A DNA stretch of 64,000 bases. Source: Octopus vulgaris. Lineage: Eukaryota. The stretch covers positions 138,012,001 to 138,076,000 of the forward strand of contig OX597814.1 of assembly GCA_951406725.2 (NCBI GenBank), written 5' to 3'. The notes beneath the pieces were generated by a model, which saw only the letters and a list, made by a program, of their open reading frames with translations, ran no database searches and was not told the DNA's origin. Position numbers and translations under genes: made by a program. The stretch's first letter is position 1. The number at the start of each line of letters is the position of its first letter. Positions 3,402 to 64,000 of this stretch are shown one piece after another.

Positions 3402-3459
3402 ATTCCACTGAAGAGGCAAAGCATTTCTTATGCAAAGGCTGAAATCCTGGATCTGGAAT
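3402..3459 (+). ncRNA. Type I hammerhead ribozyme motif with intact core
   Basis: Stem I attcca(3402-07)/tggaat(3454-59); CTGAAGA 3408-14; stem II ggc.../...gct with internal gcat-ttctt-atgc hairpin; GAAA 3441-44; stem III atcc-t-ggat; AUC triplet, predicted cut after 3453. Confidence 0.75.
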
Positions 3460-3619
3460 TATCCAGTAATTTTTTGCTAGTTTATTTTGTCTTTTTGTTT
3501 TCTCTCCTGGTGCTGTATGAACATTTAATGTGGTTTTAGAGTCAGGTTTTGGCTACTATTTCCAGCGTGGCGGTATCTCTTAGATACCCTAAATTATAAT
3601 TTTAATATATATATATACA

Positions 3620-4019
3620 TGCCAACCCCCTTGCTTGCGAAGACATGTTGGGGCAAGCGAAATCGAAATCGAATTGAACCAGCCAGGATCCCTGGTCTGG
3701 TGGTACGTAAAAAGCACCATCCGACTCGTGGCCGATGCCAGCACCGCCTCATCTGGCTTCCGTGCCGGTGGCACATAAAATACACCAATCCGACCGTGGC
3801 CGTTACCAGCCTCGCCTGGCACCTGTGCAGGTGGCACGTAAAAAGCACCCACTACACTCACGGAGTGGTTGGCGTTAGGAAGGGCATCCAGCTGTAGAAA
3901 CACTGCCAGATAAGACGGGAGCCTGGTGCAGCCTTCTGGCTTCCCAGATCCCCGGTCGAACCGTCCAACCCATGCTAGCATGGAGAACGGACGTTAAACG
4001 ATGATGATGATGATGATGA

Positions 4020-15830: not shown

Positions 15831-16803
15831 CATATATATAAATTTAAAAAAAAACATGACTTATCTGCCGGCGAATTACTGTGGATTTTAAAATTTATTC
15901 TAAACAATATAGATACGTTTTTTATTAACTTTATACACTAACACGTATTTACATTTATTTACCTTCTCCATAATGAATTAATCATGTTCACAATAATACT
16001 CTATTTGAATATTTTAGTTCGTAAGTTTCAATAATATTAATGTCTTTAACTTAGGGATTAAATTACAGGTTTTGTTTATTTATACATATATTTTTACTCC
16101 TTATTTTTTATTCCTTATCATATTATGAGGTACGTTAAACTTTTAGTTTTTAGTTTTTTTTAGGAATTTAACCCGAGGAGTGATTGTTTTGGGGAGTAAA
16201 ATCATTTTTCCGGTCTAACGAACTTGGTTATGGTTTTCTTATATGATTTTATATAGTCCTAATTAAGCCATGAAACGCGCGTAGTCGATGCACAAGTACT
16301 TACTTTTATATATTATATTATTGTATTAATTTTTATTGTTCACACACACACACATAGCTCAGTGGTTAGAGCGTCGAGCTTATGATCGTGAGGCTGTGAT
16401 TTCGAATCCCGGACCGGGCTTCGTGTTGTGTTCTTCAACAAGACACTTTATTTCACGTTGCTCCAGTTCATTCAGCTGTAGAAATGAGCTACGACGTCAC
16501 TGGTGGCCTGGAGAGGGGAGGCCGGTATGCATGGGCGACTGCTGGTCTTCCATAAAAACCTTGCCCGGACTTTCTAGGTGCAATCCCATGGTCAGTCATG
16601 ACCGAAAAGGGTGTCTCAGCATTATTATATTATATGATTGATTGATTGATTGATTCTAGTTTCAGCTTATGAGCTGTGGCCATGCTGGGGCACCGCCATT
16701 GTGTGTGTGTATATATGTGTGTATATATATACATGTGTGTGTGTGTGTATATGTGTGTATAGGAACCAGAGAAACCAATCGCAGTAAAGGCGTACTAAAA
16801 CGG

Positions 16804-16923
16804 ACTGCAGGTGGACATCCGGGAGTCATGAATCGGATGTGGCCCGACCCCACCAGAGTGTCAGGAGTTAGGGGCCGAAACACTTGCATAAAGGGGGTTT
16901 CTCCTCTGAGGACAACCTGCTGT
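16804..16923 (+). ncRNA. Permuted (pseudoknotted-order) hammerhead-like RNA, copy 1
   Basis: agtgt-C-aggag (16857-67), gggcc-GAAA-cact (16872-84), ctcct-CTGAGGA (16901-12). Partner strands ggccc 16841-45 and gcaggt 16807-12/acctgc 16915-20. Confidence 0.6.
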
Positions 16924-16946
16924 TACACTCTCCCCGAGTTTCTTTC

Positions 16947-17494
<548 letters not shown>

Positions 17495-17976: not shown

Positions 17977-19025
17977 GTTTTCACTTATTGTTGCTTACGA
18001 AATCTCCACTAGAAATTGCGAGGAATTCTAGTTTGACAGAAGGTATCAGCAAGGAATTGGGGAATTTTGGGGAAGAAAATATTCTTTCAGAATCTAAATT
18101 ATATGAACTCAATTAGCCAACCAGTACAAGCCAACGTGGAAGCCTCTGTGTAGTTGCTTGCTTTGCTAGAAATAGCACCCGCGCTTCTGTAAATCATACC
18201 TCAGTTTTTTTTTAAAAACGACACATTGGATAATGTATTCCTTGGTGTACAAATGTCAGAGCGCGCGGGGGAGGTTGAGAACGAGAGAGAAAGAGAGAAC
18301 CGGTTTGTCATGTCTGGAACGCTTTTACATATAATTCGACTCGATTAAGGCTCAAAAAACCATCAATATTGTTACGATTACCAAATTTGGGTGTTTCCTT
18401 TCAGCAAACTTGTTGATGTTTTTGTTTGCTTCGAGGGCGGACATCCGCAGCCCTAGTTCAATATTGACTGAACGAATCTATGATCAAAAGCCTTCTAAAA
18501 CAAAGACACATTCACAAGTAGACAAACAAATGGTTTGATTAGGGTATAATCAATTTGGCGAGGAAACTAAAGAGAAAATATTACGACGATGACCACCACA
18601 GATCTACAATGGAAGAATTCACCACGTGTAGTTGAGGGTAAAAGAAATCGTTGAACGACAGTAAGTACGTCCAAAATTTATAAAGCAGTGACATACATAC
18701 ATACATAGATACTTGTAGCACACATGTATATACGTGCAGAGTGAAAATAAATCACACTATTTAATGTGACGGACTACACTGCAAAAAAATCAAAAATTTC
18801 ATTTCTGTTTACAAACTTTCTCCGTGTCTATACGCACAAATACTTTTATGTATACACACGCAATATTTAAGAAAAAAAGGAATATACACAAAAAAGAACG
18901 AAACATGTGTATATACACACACAATATTTAAGAACAAGGAATATACACAAAAAAGAACGAATCAAAAACAAATATTTTATATTTTACTTTTATCGTATTG
19001 TTGTTTACATTTTCTGTCTCTACGG

Positions 19026-19419
19026 ATGACCAGAACCAACAGAATCGCCATGGTGAAATCCATAGCGGCGTGCGATAAGACTGGTCGCTGCTCTAAAATA
19101 GAACACTGCCCAGAAAATCACACCTGCCACATCTGTACGGAACCCGAAAATACGTTCCGTAATCGCTGGGTCGAATGTGGGACATGTCTCATCTCTGTCT
19201 GCCTCCAATGTGCCACGGACTTTCAGAAGATCCCAGGCCAAAAAAAGAGCCATCATAATGCTATGATGGATAGACTCTGGAAGATGGTTCAGCTTAAATC
19301 TTGGACTTTTCAGTGTCAGGCCTGCGTGCCTCCACAACCGACGATTGTGTCTCCCCCTTCCACTCCCGTGGAGGAGGCGGAACAGCAACAGCAGCAACAA
19401 CAAAATCAACCACAACCAG

Positions 19420-19452
<33 letters not shown>

Positions 19453-20234
19453 TAGAGCAGCAGCAGCAGCAACAACAAAATCAACCACAACCAGAGCAGC
19501 AGCAACAACAAAATCAACCACAACCAGAGCAGCAGCAACAACAACAACAACAGCAACAGCAAAATCAACCACAACCAGAGCAACAGCAGCAACAACAACA
19601 ACACCAATTGACCAGTGCGGTTCTTGCAGAACTGCAACAATCGATCTGTGCTTTAAAAGGGGAAGTAGCAGGAATAAAAGCAACCATTCAGGTTGGACTC
19701 CACAATGAGGGGTCTTATCGGAATGCTCTGCTAAAGAACCTCCCTGTACCTGTACCTCTTGTCGCATTTAAGACCGCGGATTCTGCCACCCATGAAGTCA
19801 TTGCCATTGGGGTACCAGAAGACATGGCTGATCTTCAGGCTTTTGCTGCCAACTCAGCCAAAGACCTAGGCTGCGTTCCCCCAACGGGTGCTATCCGCCT
19901 TGGACGACCTGGCCCAAAACCTAGGCTCATCAAGTTGTCTTTTACGGACCCCACTGAGGCAACCTCTTACCATCTGGCCTCAGTTAAAGCTGGGCGGGAA
20001 AATCGGACCACCTTCCGAACACGCCCAGGCTTACCGTCCGATGTACGTCCGAAGCTACGTGTAGTGGCTTCCCTGAATAGGAACTCAGCTCTACAGGAAA
20101 GCCTCAGTCTTCGGGAAGATGGACAAATCTGGAGATTTGTCAAGACTGCTGAAACGTGGAAGAGAGATACCAGCTGGTCTGAGTGCTCTCTACCCACAAT
20201 AACTAAAAAGACTACAGCAACTCAGGGAAACTAA
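19026..20234 (+). CDS. LINE ORF1 protein (402 aa): PHD-like zinc finger, polyQ/QPQPE repeats, coiled coil, degenerate RRM-like C-terminal region
   Basis: CHIC...WVECGTC...C.QC...FQCQAC cysteine pattern; RLGRPGPKPRLIKLSF motif typical of CR1/L2-group ORF1; reading frame intact. Confidence 0.9.
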
Positions 20235-23055
20235 GCCAGAACAACCTGCCATCCTCTACACACCATCATAAACTGCGAGCAGGGTACAAATTGTTGTCCT
20301 TAAATGCTCGCAGTTTATGCAACAAAATACATTTGTTCAACGCCTACGTCAGAAGTGTTGACCCTGACTTCATCACTGTCACGGAAACATGGGCGCATTC
20401 CTTACTCTGTGATGGGGTTTTCAACATTACGGGGTACAACCTCTTCCGTAAGGACCGCACTAACCGCCGTGGTGGTGGTGTGATGGTCTATGTTCGTTCA
20501 AATTTTTTGGTAATTCCTTGTGCCGATTTGAACGAATCACAAGAAGAAGTTTTTTTCTGTGACGTGCGTATGACCATGTCAACACTCCTGCTTGGCGTTG
20601 TTTATCGTCCCCCAAGTTACCATCAGGACACACAGCTTTGCAATGTCCTCCGAGTTGCTGCCAGGAAAACAGCCACTTATGTGTTTATTGCAGGCGATTT
20701 CAATCATCCTGAGATCGATTGGGAGACCTTCCATTGGCCACAGAGTGCAAACGATTTTGTTGAGCTTGTGCTGGACTCAAACTGGTCACAAGTAGTCACC
20801 TCTCCAACAAGAGGCGACAACACCTTGGACCTGCTCTTCACCACAACTCCTGAAGCGGTTATCAATTGCACTACGGAGGAACCTCTAGGTGACTCTGATC
20901 ATGCTATGATCATCGCCAATCTGGCTCTTGCAGGCAACAAAAACCTGAACCATCTCCAATCTGCTTCCTTCGATTGGAAGAGAGCAGATTGGAACCTGTA
21001 CCACACTGAACTACAGCACCCAAACTGGCGTGAATTCTACAACTCTGGAGATGTGAATACTATACTCCAGAGTATCCTGGACTCAATATGGGCAGCATGT
21101 GCAGCATCAGTGCCACGTAAACAAAAAAAGAAGAACCGCCCCAAAAGGGCAATTTGGGAAACTTCAGCGGTCCGACTTGCCAGGAGGGAACGTCGGACTG
21201 CTGAACGGGAATACAGGTTGCATAAATCAGACACCAACAGGAAGAAGCGGAATAAATCCTCCAACCATCTCAAGCAAGTGACAAAAAAAGCAGTGCTTGA
21301 ATTTGAACAGTGCATAGCAGCCAATCATGACAGCAAGGTTTTCTGGAAATATGTGCACTCAAAGCAGAGACCTCACTCTCCAGTGGGCCCTCTTCGCAAC
21401 CCTCACACAAACCAGATCACTGACGACCCCAAGGAATGCGCAGAACTCATTGCCGAGTACTATGCAAACATATTCACTGTTGAAAGTCAAAATGTACCAT
21501 CTTCACCATCACTAACAGCAAACTCCATAACAACTATGGAATTTACACCTGCAATGCTGCGACGTCACCTTCAAAATAAGCGCAACTATGCCTCCCCTGG
21601 TCTCGATGGAGTTACATACCTGCTTCTCAAACGTGGCAGGCACTTCCTTTTACACCAGCTTTCTATTTTCTTCCAGTACTGTCTCAACAATGGTGCTACT
21701 CCGGAGTAGTGGAAAACTGCCAGTGTCATTCCTCTGTTCAAAAAGGGCGACCGCACATCACCTGTCAACTATCGCCCAGTCAGTCTCACTAGCTGTATTG
21801 CAAAATTGATGGAATCGTGTGTCAGAGAAACACTCTGGAACTTCTGGAGCTCTCACAGTCTCATCCGACCCTCACAATATGGATTTGTCCCTAACTCCAG
21901 CTGCAGTGACCAGCTTGTCGAGTTCCTTGAGGACATTACTCAGATTACTGACAGTGGCTCATGGGTGGATGTTGTCTACCTTGACTTTGCTAAGACTTTC
22001 AACTCTGTGCCACACAAAAGGCTTATGGTGAAACTCTCTGCAATGGGTGTGGGGGATGACCTTTTTAACTGGTTGAAATCCTTCATCCTCAGCCGAAAGG
22101 AGGTAGTCACAGTTCTAGGACAGCACTCTACACCATATGAGATGTCATCGGGTGTACCACAGGGATCTGTCCTTGGTCCCCTCTTGTTTGTGGCATACAT
22201 TAACGACATAGATGCCAATTTAAAGAATGCCACAGTATTGAAATATGCGGACGACATCAAGCTGTACCTTGAAATCAAGAGGACAGATCCTGATGTCTAC
22301 AACTCTTTCCTGCAATCAGACCTAGACACAATGCAGCAATGGATCACAGACTGGCAACTGAAACTGGCTGTGGACAAGTGTACCACCATGCATTTTGGGA
22401 GAAAAACCCCGCGTTCACTTACTCCCTCCACAACACTGATATCAAGAAATCCTCTTGCGAGCGTGACCTAGGCATCACTGTCAGCAGTGATTTGCGTTGG
22501 TCAAAGCATATCTCTAAGATTGTCAGGAAGGCCGAGGGTGTCTTGGTATCACTCAGCAGGTCTTTTGTTAGCCGCTCTCCAGCCATCTATTTAAAACTGT
22601 ATACAGCTATGGTACGACCACACTTGGAATTCGCATCATCAGTTTGGAACCCCTATCTTGCACAGAACATTGACCTCCTGGAATCTGTCCAGAGACGTGC
22701 AACCAAACGCATACCCTCCATCAGACACGTACCATATTCTGAGCGCCTTGTTTCCCTGGGCATGGATTCACTGAAGCTCCGGCGTTTGGCGACGGACTTG
22801 GTAAACACCCACAAAGTTATCAACCACCTCACCAACAACAACACTGAACACCTTTTTGATCTCCATGTGTCTAACACACGTGGACATGCCTACAAAGTCA
22901 GAAAACAATACAGCTCCCATGACTTTCGGAAACATTTTTTCACGCTCAGAGTTGCTGAAGCATGGAATAAACTGCCTGCGTCAGTTGTTGACTGCCATGA
23001 CACTGCATCTTTTAAGGCCCTCATGCTTTCCGAAATCCGCCGAAACTACACCTGA
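20225..23055 (+). pseudogene. LINE ORF2 (APE endonuclease + reverse transcriptase), disrupted
   Basis: LSLNARSL, ETW, GDFN, LDL and SDH (APE); NYRP, YLDF..FNSVPH, SGVPQGSVLGP and YADD (RT); VRPHLE. TAG at 21707-21709 and a 1-nt frameshift in the A-run at about 22402-22406. Confidence 0.95.
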
Positions 23056-26241: not shown

Positions 26242-27464
26242 TTAGGTTGTTTCATACGAAATGTCGTATTTGAAAGGTAACAATAAAATGTTTCAGAAGT
26301 TTTAGAGAACTGATTTATTTAATCAAAGTATGATCCATGTTTATTTATGACGTTTACCCAATGTTTCTCTATGTCATATATTCCATCTTTAAAAAAAAAA
26401 TTCATCTTTTGCTGTGACAAACTGTCCAAATGCTTAAATTACCTCTTCTCTATTTAAGAATGTTTTATTGCTTATGAAATGCTCAAATTGTTTAAATAAG
26501 TTACGATCAGTTGGAAAGATATCAGTGGAATAGGGAGGATGTTGCAAAATCTCATAATTCAGGCTTTGCAACTTTTTGACCATAGCTTGAGGAGTGTGAA
26601 GATGTGCATTGTTGTGGAGCAAAATTGGGCCATCATTATTCACTAGTCTGGGTTGCTTTTTTTTCAAATTTTCATGCATACAGTCAATTTCCTGGCAATA
26701 TGATGTTGCTGTTACCATTTTTCCTTTTTGCAAAAATGAATAAAGAATAATTCTCTTCGCAGACCACCATACAGTGACCATTAACTTTTTAGGATACAGT
26801 GGTGGGTTTGGGTAGTGTTTAGATAAATCTCCTGCATCTTATCACTGTCCTATTCTCCTGATTTTTTTCAGAGAGTATCCATTTCTCATCACAAGTAATG
26901 ATTTAATGCAAAAATGGTATTTTTGCAGTTGAGAAAGCAATAAGGTGCCTGTTTTTCTGAATCTTGTTCAGTTGATGTGGAACAAACCTATCTGTTTTCT
27001 TGACATTTCCAATTTTTTACAGGTGTCTTAAAACAGTTGTGTGAGATGTTTGGAGTTCTGATGAAAGTTTTTGAACCATTGTTCTCAGATTTTGTTCAAC
27101 CAAAGCATTTAATCCATCATGCCGAATAACTGATTTTGGCCTACCCCTTGGTTTATTTTCAAGGCTATCATCTCCTGAATGAGAGCTTTGGAACCATCTC
27201 TAAACAGTTCTGATGTCAACAAAACCATTACCAAAGGCCCGCTTGATATTCCTTAGAGCTTCTGTGTCAGAATGACCCAGTTTGTACTCGTACGAGAAAA
27301 TCACTCAACATAGTTTGGCTGTAATCATTTTCATAAGGTCTTTGGGTACGAATTTTGTAAACAAATATTGTTGGGAAAGAAAAAGAGTCAAGATTATATG
27401 AGTTTTTTAAATGACTGAAATAACAAGTAATTAAAAATGCAACATTTCATGTGAAGCAACCTAA
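26242..27464 (-). mobile_element. Decayed full-length mariner transposon nested in a family B SINE
   Basis: TIRs ttaggttgtttcatacgaaatgtcgtattt / aaatgcaacatttcatgtgaagcaacctaa. Transposase remnants ILLHNNAHLH (LHDNARPH) and HPPYSTDIFPTD (YSPDLAPSD). SINE head at 26195-26241 continues at 27467. Confidence 0.92.
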
Positions 27465-40739: not shown

Positions 40740-41065
40740 ATTATATGTCTTGCAAACAACTTGCACATGCAAGTGCTACCAGTCAAAAGCTCCGTATACT
40801 GGAAGCCAGCAAGTGTATGGGGTCATCAGGAGAGAATGCGTGCCGTTTCGGGGCCTACCTCTCGACGGCATCAATGCGCACCGGCACCCCTCACTGATAT
40901 GAGGCCCCGCTTGCTAGATCAGCTGGTTATGAAGTTAAACTCAATATCCTTCTAGCCATCGCTCATCATCTCTTTTTAACCACATCCAGTGGCTAGCCTT
41001 CTCCACTGTAGATTGGACATCAGTCATGGTGGTATTGACTTTACGATAAGTTAGGCCTAGCTTAA
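40740..41065 (-). mobile_element. 3' end of a HERO-like RLE non-LTR retrotransposon
   Basis: KLGLTYRKVNTTMTDVQSTVEKASHWMWLKRDDERWLEGY* (stop at 40941-43) matches the EKAS.W.WLKR C-terminus of HERO-type ORFs; GC- and CpG-rich 3' UTR. Confidence 0.75.
40806..40917 (-). ncRNA. Permuted (pseudoknotted-order) hammerhead-like RNA, copy 2
   Basis: Minus strand: ctagcaag-c-ggggcct ... tgccgt-C-gagag-gt-aggcccc-GAAA-cggca-cgcatt-ctctc-CTGATGA-ccccataca-cttgctgg. Confidence 0.65.
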
Positions 41066-61897: not shown

Positions 61898-62352
61898 CAT
61901 CATCATTGTTCGACTGTCGTCAAGACAATGGAATTTACCATGCTACGCCAGACTTCACGGTCCATCATAGCATTACGGAGGTCCTGTTGCTGGATGCCTG
62001 TATCCCTGGAGATTACATCAGGGTAGGAGAGTGTGCGCCCTCTGATATCGCGAGTAGATGGCTTCCAGAGGAGAAGAGTAGAAATTGCCTCGTTTTCAGC
62101 TCTACAACAATGTCCAGCAAACTGGACTCTTCTACCTTTCACAAGAGATGACACAGGTGGTAGTTTCCCATATATTTGCATTTTGGTTGGACGACGCTTC
62201 CACGAGAGATTTTGAGCTCTCATAACGAGGCGAGTGTAGGTTCCATCCAACTGCCTCTCAAGCTTCTTTGATAACGTCCAGGTTTCTGAGCCATATAGTA
62301 GAATTGGTTCGACTGTGGCGTTGAAGATTTTAAGTTTGAAGTCTCTACTTAG
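61898..62352 (-). mobile_element. 5'-truncated RTE-type LINE with open ORF2 C-terminus and 11-bp TSD
   Basis: KLKIFNATVEPILLYGSETW...FAGHC...MMDREVWR; (TGA)n tail; atttagtatat at 61887-97 and 62353-63. Confidence 0.92.
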
Positions 62353-64000
62353 ATTTAGTATATAGCTTTGTTGGGTGGAGAGAAAGTGAGAGAGGTTATG
62401 TAGTTGGATTTTGAAAAGCAGGTAATCTGGTTTTCTTGACAAGAAGGCTTTCTCAAAATCATCATCATTGTTGTTTTAACAGCAACTTTTCCATGTTTGC
62501 ACTGGTCAGACAGAATTTGTTGAGGCTAGTTTTCTACTTCTGGATACTCTTCCTGTCATCAACCCTCACCAGTTTCCATATAAGGTAGTATTTCCCCATT
62601 GCCAAACATAGATTTCATGGTAGCCTGGAAACAAACAACTTATATGACAGCGATGCTTGTTTACAACTGCTCTATTTCAGAAAATTCTTGTATCAAATAT
62701 GAAACCTTGTCTCAAGGTCACATACATTTCTGATAATACTTCCAGCAAGAATCTATTTGAGTTGTTAGGGTGATTATCATATCAACGCTTACCCTTTTAT
62801 ATGCATTTTTCTGCATGTTTTTTGTCACGTATTCCATCAAACTATTGCTGTTTTTATTTACAACAACGTAATTAACGAGGAGTTATTTGTGTGGGATGCT
62901 GTTGTCTTCCATGTTTCTTTTGATCTTTCTGTGCAGTTGCTGTGTTAGTGTATTTTTCTGTTGTTGATTTAGTTGTTTATACAGTGGGAGTGATAGTGGT
63001 AATTGTTGTTGTTGTTGTTGTTTTCACAGATTTTTTTTTTGTTGGTTGTGTTTCTGCGGTTGTAGGTTTAGTCTTTGTTTATGTTGTAGTCAAGAAGTTA
63101 TAGCGCCAAAATGATACCAGAAAAATTGTGTAGCTTATGTTACCTTTATATATGTATTCAGTTTGGTAGTATCTTTGAATCTTCCTTGCGAGTTATCATA
63201 ACATTCTAGCAAAAATAAATAAATAAATAAATAAACAAAACAAAACAAAATAAAAGACTCCCCTTCCACATCCTTCAAAGCCTCACTATTGATACATCTC
63301 CTATAATTGAACATGTCTAGGAATTTCAGAATCTTTAAAGAATACAACAGTACTTTTAAAGGATACAAACAGTATAATTATAGGAAAACACGATTGGAGA
63401 GTAAATCTACAGATTAAACATAAGTTTATATTTAAAACTTTGGATATATTTAAAACTTTAGCTTCATGCAACATTAGAATTCTGTCTTGTCTCATGTTCT
63501 TTGAAAAATATATTTGTCCAAAACATGAGATGTGAACTGTGTTAGTACAGATGTACCTGAAAAGCAAATTTTCAGAAAATCATGTTTATTGTTGGCAAAT
63601 AGTTTTTTTTTGTGGTAGTAAGGGTTAGACAGGGAGATACTTGAAGCAGGATCTTTACAGCCAGATAAATGCTTTTCCTGTCACCAACCATTATTTGTTT
63701 TTCAAGTAAGGAAATTTTTATTTCAGAAGAAAGAGAAAGTGCAGAGCTAGCGGATGGTTTGTTGATAGGAAATGTCAACATCTGTCACTGGTTCCAGCTC
63801 AGCAACAAATGGTGATACCTGCATCTGTAGCATAGCTCACTGTAAATTGTAAGCATTCACTCATGTACACACACACACACGCTCCTTTCAGTTTCTGCCT
63901 ACCAAAGGCTTAGAAGTAAAGTGAATTCATTTCACTTTACATATTGTGGCTGTGCAGTTAGGAAGCTTGCTTCCCATTCACTTTGTTCAAGGTTCAGTTC

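Follow-up and report, generated by a model that had tools for sequence, protein, structure and literature searches.

A hammerhead ribozyme opened within its catalytic core in HERO-type retrotransposons of Octopus vulgaris and its likely service in a circular-RNA replication cycle

Penelope-like elements with hammerhead ribozymes in their pseudo-LTRs are reportedly autonomous, with the ribozyme in a terminal repeat and with partial-tandem copies, as in the elements described here; unlike these, they are said to encode a GIY-YIG endonuclease and to use conventional type I hammerheads. R2 elements carry an HDV-like ribozyme. As described in the available parts of PMC7650587 and PMC13580325, R2 shares with our elements a single open reading frame (ORF) with a reverse transcriptase (RT) and a restriction-like endonuclease, together with a ribozyme that processes the template RNA, but the R2 ribozyme is located 5' and releases the element RNA from a co-transcript with rRNA. 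Our elements, in contrast, have a hammerhead approximately 90 to 120 nt inside the 3' end of the copy, and their copies lack a fixed 5' end at the unit start. Metazoan non-LTR retrozymes undergo double cleavage by their hammerheads to monomers that are ligated into circles; RtcB ligates far better than self-ligation in vitro, and tandem cDNA synthesis from a primed circle has been proposed (available parts of PMC7229834 and bioRxiv 10.64898/2026.07.22.740005). These sources describe retrozymes as non-coding elements of 170 to 400 nt with type I hammerheads, tied to Penelope-like elements, whereas the 3.7-kb element described here encodes its own RT and restriction-like endonuclease. The HERO clade (HERO-1_BF, HERO-2_DR, and HEROTn; available parts of PMC5678591 and PMC7650587) resembles our elements in its RT motifs, as compared by eye, in a single ORF of ~1120 to 1175 aa, and in dispersed insertion. 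A literature search, whose scope stopped short of the original HERO paper, Repbase reports, patents, most subscription papers, and bioRxiv supplements, found no ribozyme or circular template for HERO and no paper linking a hammerhead with a HERO retrotransposon.

For the topology of the ribozyme, the closest described form is type-SGC (HRIMA-1) of Eckert et al. 2023, which our literature search met only in that paper (PMC10085705). In its available text, block C of the hammerhead is taken as uninterruptible. Type-SGC shares with our fold the S-G-C order of blocks, a short stem I-II linker, an extra helix formed with the remaining strands of stems I and II, and the full core. There, block C is unbroken and the molecule ends elsewhere, whereas our fold breaks block C between A9 and G10.1 and bridges the gap with a helix (P0) and a hairpin. 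This opening lies outside the six permutations set out in the available part of Eckert et al., and our literature search found no tested precedent for an opening at A9/G10.1.

We analyzed a 64,000-nt stretch of the O. vulgaris genome (OX597814.1, positions 138,012,001 to 138,076,000 of the forward strand), which we refer to as the window. The fold at 16804-16923 on the + strand begins with the 5' strand of P0 (16804-16814), followed by the inserted hairpin Pa (16815-16840; arms 16815-21/16834-40), which abuts P0 and stem II with zero unpaired bases. The 5' strand of stem II (16841-16845, with G10.1 at 16841) lies upstream of the cleavage block and pairs with 16872-76. It is followed by the 5' strand of a helix that we call PX (16848-16851, partner 16893-16897), the equivalent of the helix through which stems I and II interact in type-SGC in the available text of PMC10085705. 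Block S (16857-16867) then contains the stem III 3' strand, GUC at 16860-62, and the stem I 3' strand, with the predicted cut after 16862. Beyond a short linker, block G (16872-16884) contains the stem II 3' strand, GAAA at 16877-80, and the stem III 5' strand. The second strand of PX precedes half of block C (16901-16912), made of the stem I 5' strand and the CUGANGA motif (here CUGAGGA, 16906-12), and the 3' strand of P0 (16913-16923) follows directly after A9 to form an 11-pair helix with 16804-14. Stem III pairs 16857-61 with 16880-84, and stem I pairs 16863-67 with 16901-05. Stems I to III, GUC, GAAA, CUGAGGA, and the hairpin all lie where a preliminary description of this DNA had placed them. 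The outer helix of that description is present as pairing and is only part of P0, which starts right after A9, and its four named helices are all present, with PX overlooked as a further one.

We considered canonical type-SGC pairing and rejected it, since the bases after CUGANGA give only 0 to 2 stem II pairs in 20 of 20 parses and the partner strand lies upstream of block S. As predicted from its pairing, the fold is the type-SGC block order opened between A9 and G10.1, with two extra helices joining there. In 18 of 21 parses, the joints between A9, P0, Pa, and stem II contain zero unpaired bases. We infer a perfect four-way junction of P0, Pa, stem II, and the core, in which the core sits on stem II and P0 on Pa; such a junction would leave the hammerhead stack intact despite the backbone break.

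Relatives of the fold came from 66 related loci collected from metagenome contigs via protein alignment, 51 with at least 250 nt downstream and 15 with fewer than 250 nt. The fold was parsed in 25 of these loci, with covariation in every stem, and no parse was obtained in the other 41 (with 15 of the 66 having fewer than 250 nt downstream). Loci L143 to L150, L155, L158, and L159 share a conserved 3' UTR of another kind, and the 270 nt examined there contain no hammerhead core. Removal of 3 near-duplicates from 21 parses left 18, and omission of 2 weak parses from the pair table gave 16 non-redundant families; the pair counts exclude a MAFFT alignment of five UTRs, whose quality was poor toward the 5' side. 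The first four pairs of stems I and II, P0, and Pa were paired in 16 of 16 families by several pair types, and P0 covaries across these families. Own versus cross-family pairing fractions were 0.98 versus 0.51 for stem I, 0.98 versus 0.56 for stem II, 0.98 versus 0.76 for stem III, and 0.96 versus 0.44 for P0, with the own-pair fractions inflated because the parses were optimized for pairing. When stem II was placed blind from P0 and Pa alone, at least 4 pairs formed in 13 of 20 cases, and placement failed in 7 of 20. The cross-family covariation supports the earlier proposal of a selected permuted hammerhead fold rather than a chance one, and we regard a conserved fold at this UTR site as practically certain.

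The sequence of the island at 16761-16950 (+) identifies it as the decayed, 5'-truncated remnant of a HERO-type non-LTR retrotransposon that we call family A, of which it forms the 3'-terminal 190 bp. A genome-wide search (2.8-Gb genome) found family A dispersed, with 102 candidates, and the 40 of these that were scored had 81 to 90% identity to the 190-bp island, marking it as an old copy. Longer family A copies extend 5' through a tRNA-like segment into the endonuclease C-terminus of an ORF, which bears out the 5'-truncated retrocopy proposed earlier. The window copy is a dead fragment. It keeps all core letters and departs from the commonest family letter at 7 positions across 16797-16932, 2 of which break P0 pairs (16806 and 16914); the C-to-A change at 16914 is a mismatch at P0 pair 2, where 25 of 29 other copies have C. 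The (TA)n microsatellite that follows (16951-17493), previously taken for a retrocopy tail, stands at the 3' end in only 10 of 30 family A copies and is likely the insertion target instead. Other repeats in the window include a tRNA-headed SINE-like repeat just upstream of the copy (16353-16620, +) and a two-ORF LINE at 18765-23055 (+), presumably CR1/L2-like, whose endonuclease and RT pieces are interrupted by a stop and a frameshift. We take 26434-26838 (-) to be a mariner-like transposase fragment and 61903-62475 (-) to be an RTE-like RT C-terminus.

The tRNA-like segment is present in family A only. In one copy (L004:1290-1470), it lies in the UTR between the ORF end and the ribozyme and contains A- and B-box-like motifs. 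It has 43 genome matches, and 18 of the 20 fetched run into the ribozyme end. ARAGORN called no tRNA in 12 loci. A tRNA-derived SINE as the parent of the island was rejected, as the segment sits inside the family A UTR, where it is possibly a captured SINE head.

The second site in the window is the 3' fragment of a younger HERO-type family (family B) at 40745-41059 (-), which has the same ribozyme fold, with the predicted cut after 40864, and 95% identity to unit positions 3425-3736 of an intact copy, L091. Family B yielded 2467 candidates, and the 40 scored had ~96% identity. Its intact unit is 3738 nt with a single 1175-aa ORF containing RVT_1. A C-terminus with the motifs PD..ELTVP..GF..EKAS.W.W, which we take to be a restriction-like endonuclease, precedes the tails of both families; Pfam searches with the C-terminal pieces alone returned 0 families. 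A single ORF with an RT and a C-terminal restriction-like endonuclease is the arrangement expected of the HERO clade. The family B RT is close, by eye, to the HERO rows in the supplements of PMC5678591 and PMC7650587, each available in part. A genome search to extend the window copy 5' and name its parent, suggested in the preliminary description, gave a HERO-type non-LTR element, to which we assign both sites from their sequence relationships. The two sites had been counted as independent instances of the ribozyme; they are instead homologous tails of two families in one clade and not separate inventions. The same fold had been drawn at 40806-40917, which holds, with stem II and the outer helix out of register: relatives put stem II directly after the inserted hairpin, where the window copy has a substitution. 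One family B copy (L094) is partly inverted, in a longer-than-unit arrangement.

Evidence at the predicted cut and at the unit junction, neither of which figured in the preliminary description, comes mainly from family B. Among 904 family B copies that hold the 18 bases after the predicted cut, 9 passed a strict start-at-cut filter in which all three bases preceding the cut had to be changed; 8 of these are bordered by unrelated sequence, and the ninth is joined to a further piece of the element. The same filter gave 3 and 0 at two control sites, as counts without totals. We scanned the flanking positions more finely in two sets that share loci, after removing internal deletions and one inverted copy; 30 of 36 and 30 of 45 matches were examined, with the remaining 21 of 81 outside the counts. 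From position -16 to 0, 8 of 13 truncated ends fell on the base after C17 (P = 1.4e-7), and from 0 to +12, 7 of 11 ends fell on this base (P = 4e-6). In all, 13 distinct family B loci begin or join at the cut, versus 9 ends across the other 28 positions (P ~ 1e-7). In two loci, L338 and L354, the base after the cut abuts a different stretch of the element. Approximately 98% of family B copies extend past the cut site, a proportion compatible with religation and also with slow cleavage. In the family A group, one copy (L387) of 40 starts at the cut, and a deletion in L436 joins at the cut within 3 nt of microhomology; the start-at-cut filter gave 0 of 66 core matches in this group, where with ~0.4 expected it was underpowered.

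With the first 160 bases of the family B unit as the query, we examined the 30 best 5'-end matches. None of them starts at unit position 1. Instead, 28 reach unit position 1 to 2 (two of the 28 being one duplicated locus), and all 28 continue into the unit 3' end through one seamless junction of constant length, for 8 to ~1980 nt. Across 20 copies, 23 rare variants and 88 subfamily variants are common to both repeats of a copy. The repeats disagree at 285 of 8963 positions, predominantly in old copies and including 3 discordant subfamily sites, and we read these differences as post-insertion decay. One copy (L183) has four private A-to-G changes within ~100 nt in both repeats, the pattern expected if a single template had undergone A-to-I editing and then been copied twice. 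No indel occurs at 3617-3622 in 112 alignments passing the cut, and 3' ends vary over ~8 nt, merging into AT-rich target. We also observed this run-on in 4 copies of a family A-related subfamily and in 6 metagenome contigs (L115, L123, L127, L132, L136, and L137); among these contigs, L123 joins back onto itself after 3836 nt. For family A itself, the junction gave 0 matches by exact pattern and was not found among 30 and 40 downstream flanks.

Several copies (L207, L209, L212, L213, L219, L221, L222, and L226) have different internal deletions and retain the terminal repeat, keeping ~680 to 850 nt of the 5' part and 340 to 630 nt of the 3' part. These derivatives are retrozyme-like and non-autonomous; the family B unit itself is not non-autonomous, small, and ORF-free as a retrozyme is, and only the deletion derivatives resemble one. 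A family A-related element, L421, has a ~127-bp short tandem repeat of its ribozyme-bearing end. Just past the junction, all six elements examined (L091:4590-4760, L115, L123, L127, L136, and L137) have a conserved ACCA(G/C)TGAC-like motif and then between one and five copies of G(A/G)AAGA, which mostly sit in hairpin loops. Lying right past the predicted priming site, this stretch is a candidate protein-binding array or promoter. Two further contigs came from four runs, three of which are only guessed to be RNA: a contig of run X1 reads from the UTR through the junction and a 2483-nt deletion and returns to the UTR stretch where it began, overlapping it by 25 nt, and a contig of run X4 bridges the junction. 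Because contigs show neither ends nor circularity, we set both aside as evidence.

Considered together, the sequence data suggest that the ribozyme likely self-cleaves and that the element is likely reverse transcribed from a circular unit-length RNA. The most economical account carries the retrozyme cycle of PMC7229834 over to an autonomous element: a transcript of 1.x units would carry two ribozymes and be cut twice to a 3738-nt monomer. In each ribozyme, the four-way junction of P0 and Pa with stem II and the core would keep both stacks intact despite the break. The monomer ends, held by P0, stem II, PX, and stem III, would be ligated (by RtcB or by the ribozyme) or clamped as a nicked circle, and we think there is a good chance that such a covalent or clamped circle serves as the template. 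The permuted wiring would suit a retrozyme-like cycle because four helices hold the two ends together; after the double cut, the leader would likewise remain bound by four helices and need displacement. Target-primed reverse transcription would start at an internal site 121 nt 3' of the cut, where the RNA would pair over a short stretch with AT-rich target DNA. At an open site the enzyme would run off, giving 121-nt inserts, or jump, while at a closed site it would continue and could pass its own start. We lean toward the broader view that HERO elements are autonomous protein-coding LINEs with a circular RNA genome, in which a seventh hammerhead topology, its catalytic core opened where four helices meet in a perfect junction, both cleaves the unit ends and holds them together, and the enzyme encoded by the element is primed internally and copies its way around the circle. 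If this is true, the annotated 5' and 3' ends of HERO elements mark only the priming site, and the conserved motif with its GAAAGA-loop hairpins is the landing site of the enzyme.

Template jumping is known for R2-group enzymes, and jumps usually add or lose bases. An active ribozyme might yield a linear monomer whose ends are clamped by the ribozyme helices, with the RT jumping from the 5' to the 3' end of the same molecule and no covalent circle. Such jumps would account equally well for longer-than-unit copies and for private variants shared by both repeats, and L338 and L354 show jumps that start at the cut. The 112 pass-through alignments, however, have no indel at the cut, and we consider a linear template of this kind improbable. 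We give an equally low rating to a model where the ribozyme cuts only a minority of RNAs and the templates are linear read-through transcripts of tandem DNA masters, with the terminal repeat in the role of a Penelope pseudo-LTR or of an upstream promoter as in HeT-A. Most copies do pass the cut, and 1.x-unit loci exist that could be transcribed whole. With such masters the redundancy could only shrink, yet it occurs in subfamilies whose identities run from ~76% to 99.8%, in deletion derivatives of several kinds, and among unrelated contigs, and locus-private variants sit in both repeats. Copying from a circular unit-length RNA is the reading that we retain.

The catalytic letters of the fold were scored at positions left free in the parse. 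The window copy has a full hammerhead core (C3 U4 G5 A6 N7 G8 A9, G12 A13 A14, A15.1-U16.1, and an H17 other than G), and stems I, II, and III flank the core with covariation in 16 families. U16.1-A15.1 and G10.1 are present in 16 of 16 families, N7 varies among families, and H17 is C in 7, U in 5, A in 4, and G in 0. Positions 3 and 8 are C-G in 20, U-A in 3, and U-G in 2 of 25 parses (near-duplicates included), with 0 mismatches; in the null for this pairing, 3 of 396 windows matched, and 1 of the 3 is the real motif. Covariation from C3-G8 to U3-A8 is a known core feature of natural hammerheads in the available part of PMC3088659. Two otherwise complete folds (L157 and L162) have G12 changed to C or A, by decay or as a core variant.

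We also weighed whether the fold could be a non-catalytic recognition structure for the RT of the element that merely keeps hammerhead letters. The bases after CUGANGA are held in P0 and cannot form stem II (20 of 20 parses), as would be expected of such a structure, and R2-group 3' UTRs carry protein-bound pseudoknots (available part of PMC12222951). Stem II nevertheless forms with the upstream strand and covaries, H17 is never G, positions 3 and 8 covary, and 5' ends pile up on the exact scissile bond, all of which make a purely structural role very unlikely. The ribozyme is thus very likely catalytic, as judged from these signatures, and we have high confidence in the prediction that it cleaves in vivo at the predicted bond.

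A descriptor of the fold, composed after both window sites were known, matched the window exactly twice, at 16804-16923 and at the 40864 (-) site. The shuffle control called for in the preliminary description gave 91 loose and 12 strict matches in 4417 dinucleotide shuffles, or 0.021 and 0.003 per window. In the 66 related loci, the strict descriptor matched 19 loci, with 19 matches in 24.5 kb downstream of related ORFs versus 1 in 436.7 kb elsewhere, this lone match being a terminal repeat of the same UTR; there was no match on the opposite strand. An Rfam scan found no hammerhead among 77 matches with E values up to 1. Nested folding did not recover the fold and was not better than shuffles (z = -0.94), which is uninformative because stems I, II, and III mutually cross. 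A chance match to a loose descriptor is therefore scarcely credible: a descriptor composed with the sites in hand and the nested folding result could favor it, but the low shuffle rates speak against it and the cross-family enrichment already refutes it.

These findings place a new hammerhead topology in HERO-type retrotransposons, where, on the present sequence evidence, it likely serves a circular-RNA replication cycle. The topology would carry non-circularly permuted ribozymes from anonymous metatranscriptome RNAs into animal genomes and would break the stated rule that the CUGAnGA block is uninterruptible. Both claims can be tested together because intact young copies exist (L091, L092, and L180). 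If a LINE enzyme can use stable circular templates, this is also relevant to tools for RNA-based gene insertion. The cycle would be the first case found of a restriction-endonuclease LINE copying from circular RNA with internal priming, and it would connect LINEs with retrozymes and Penelope-like elements.
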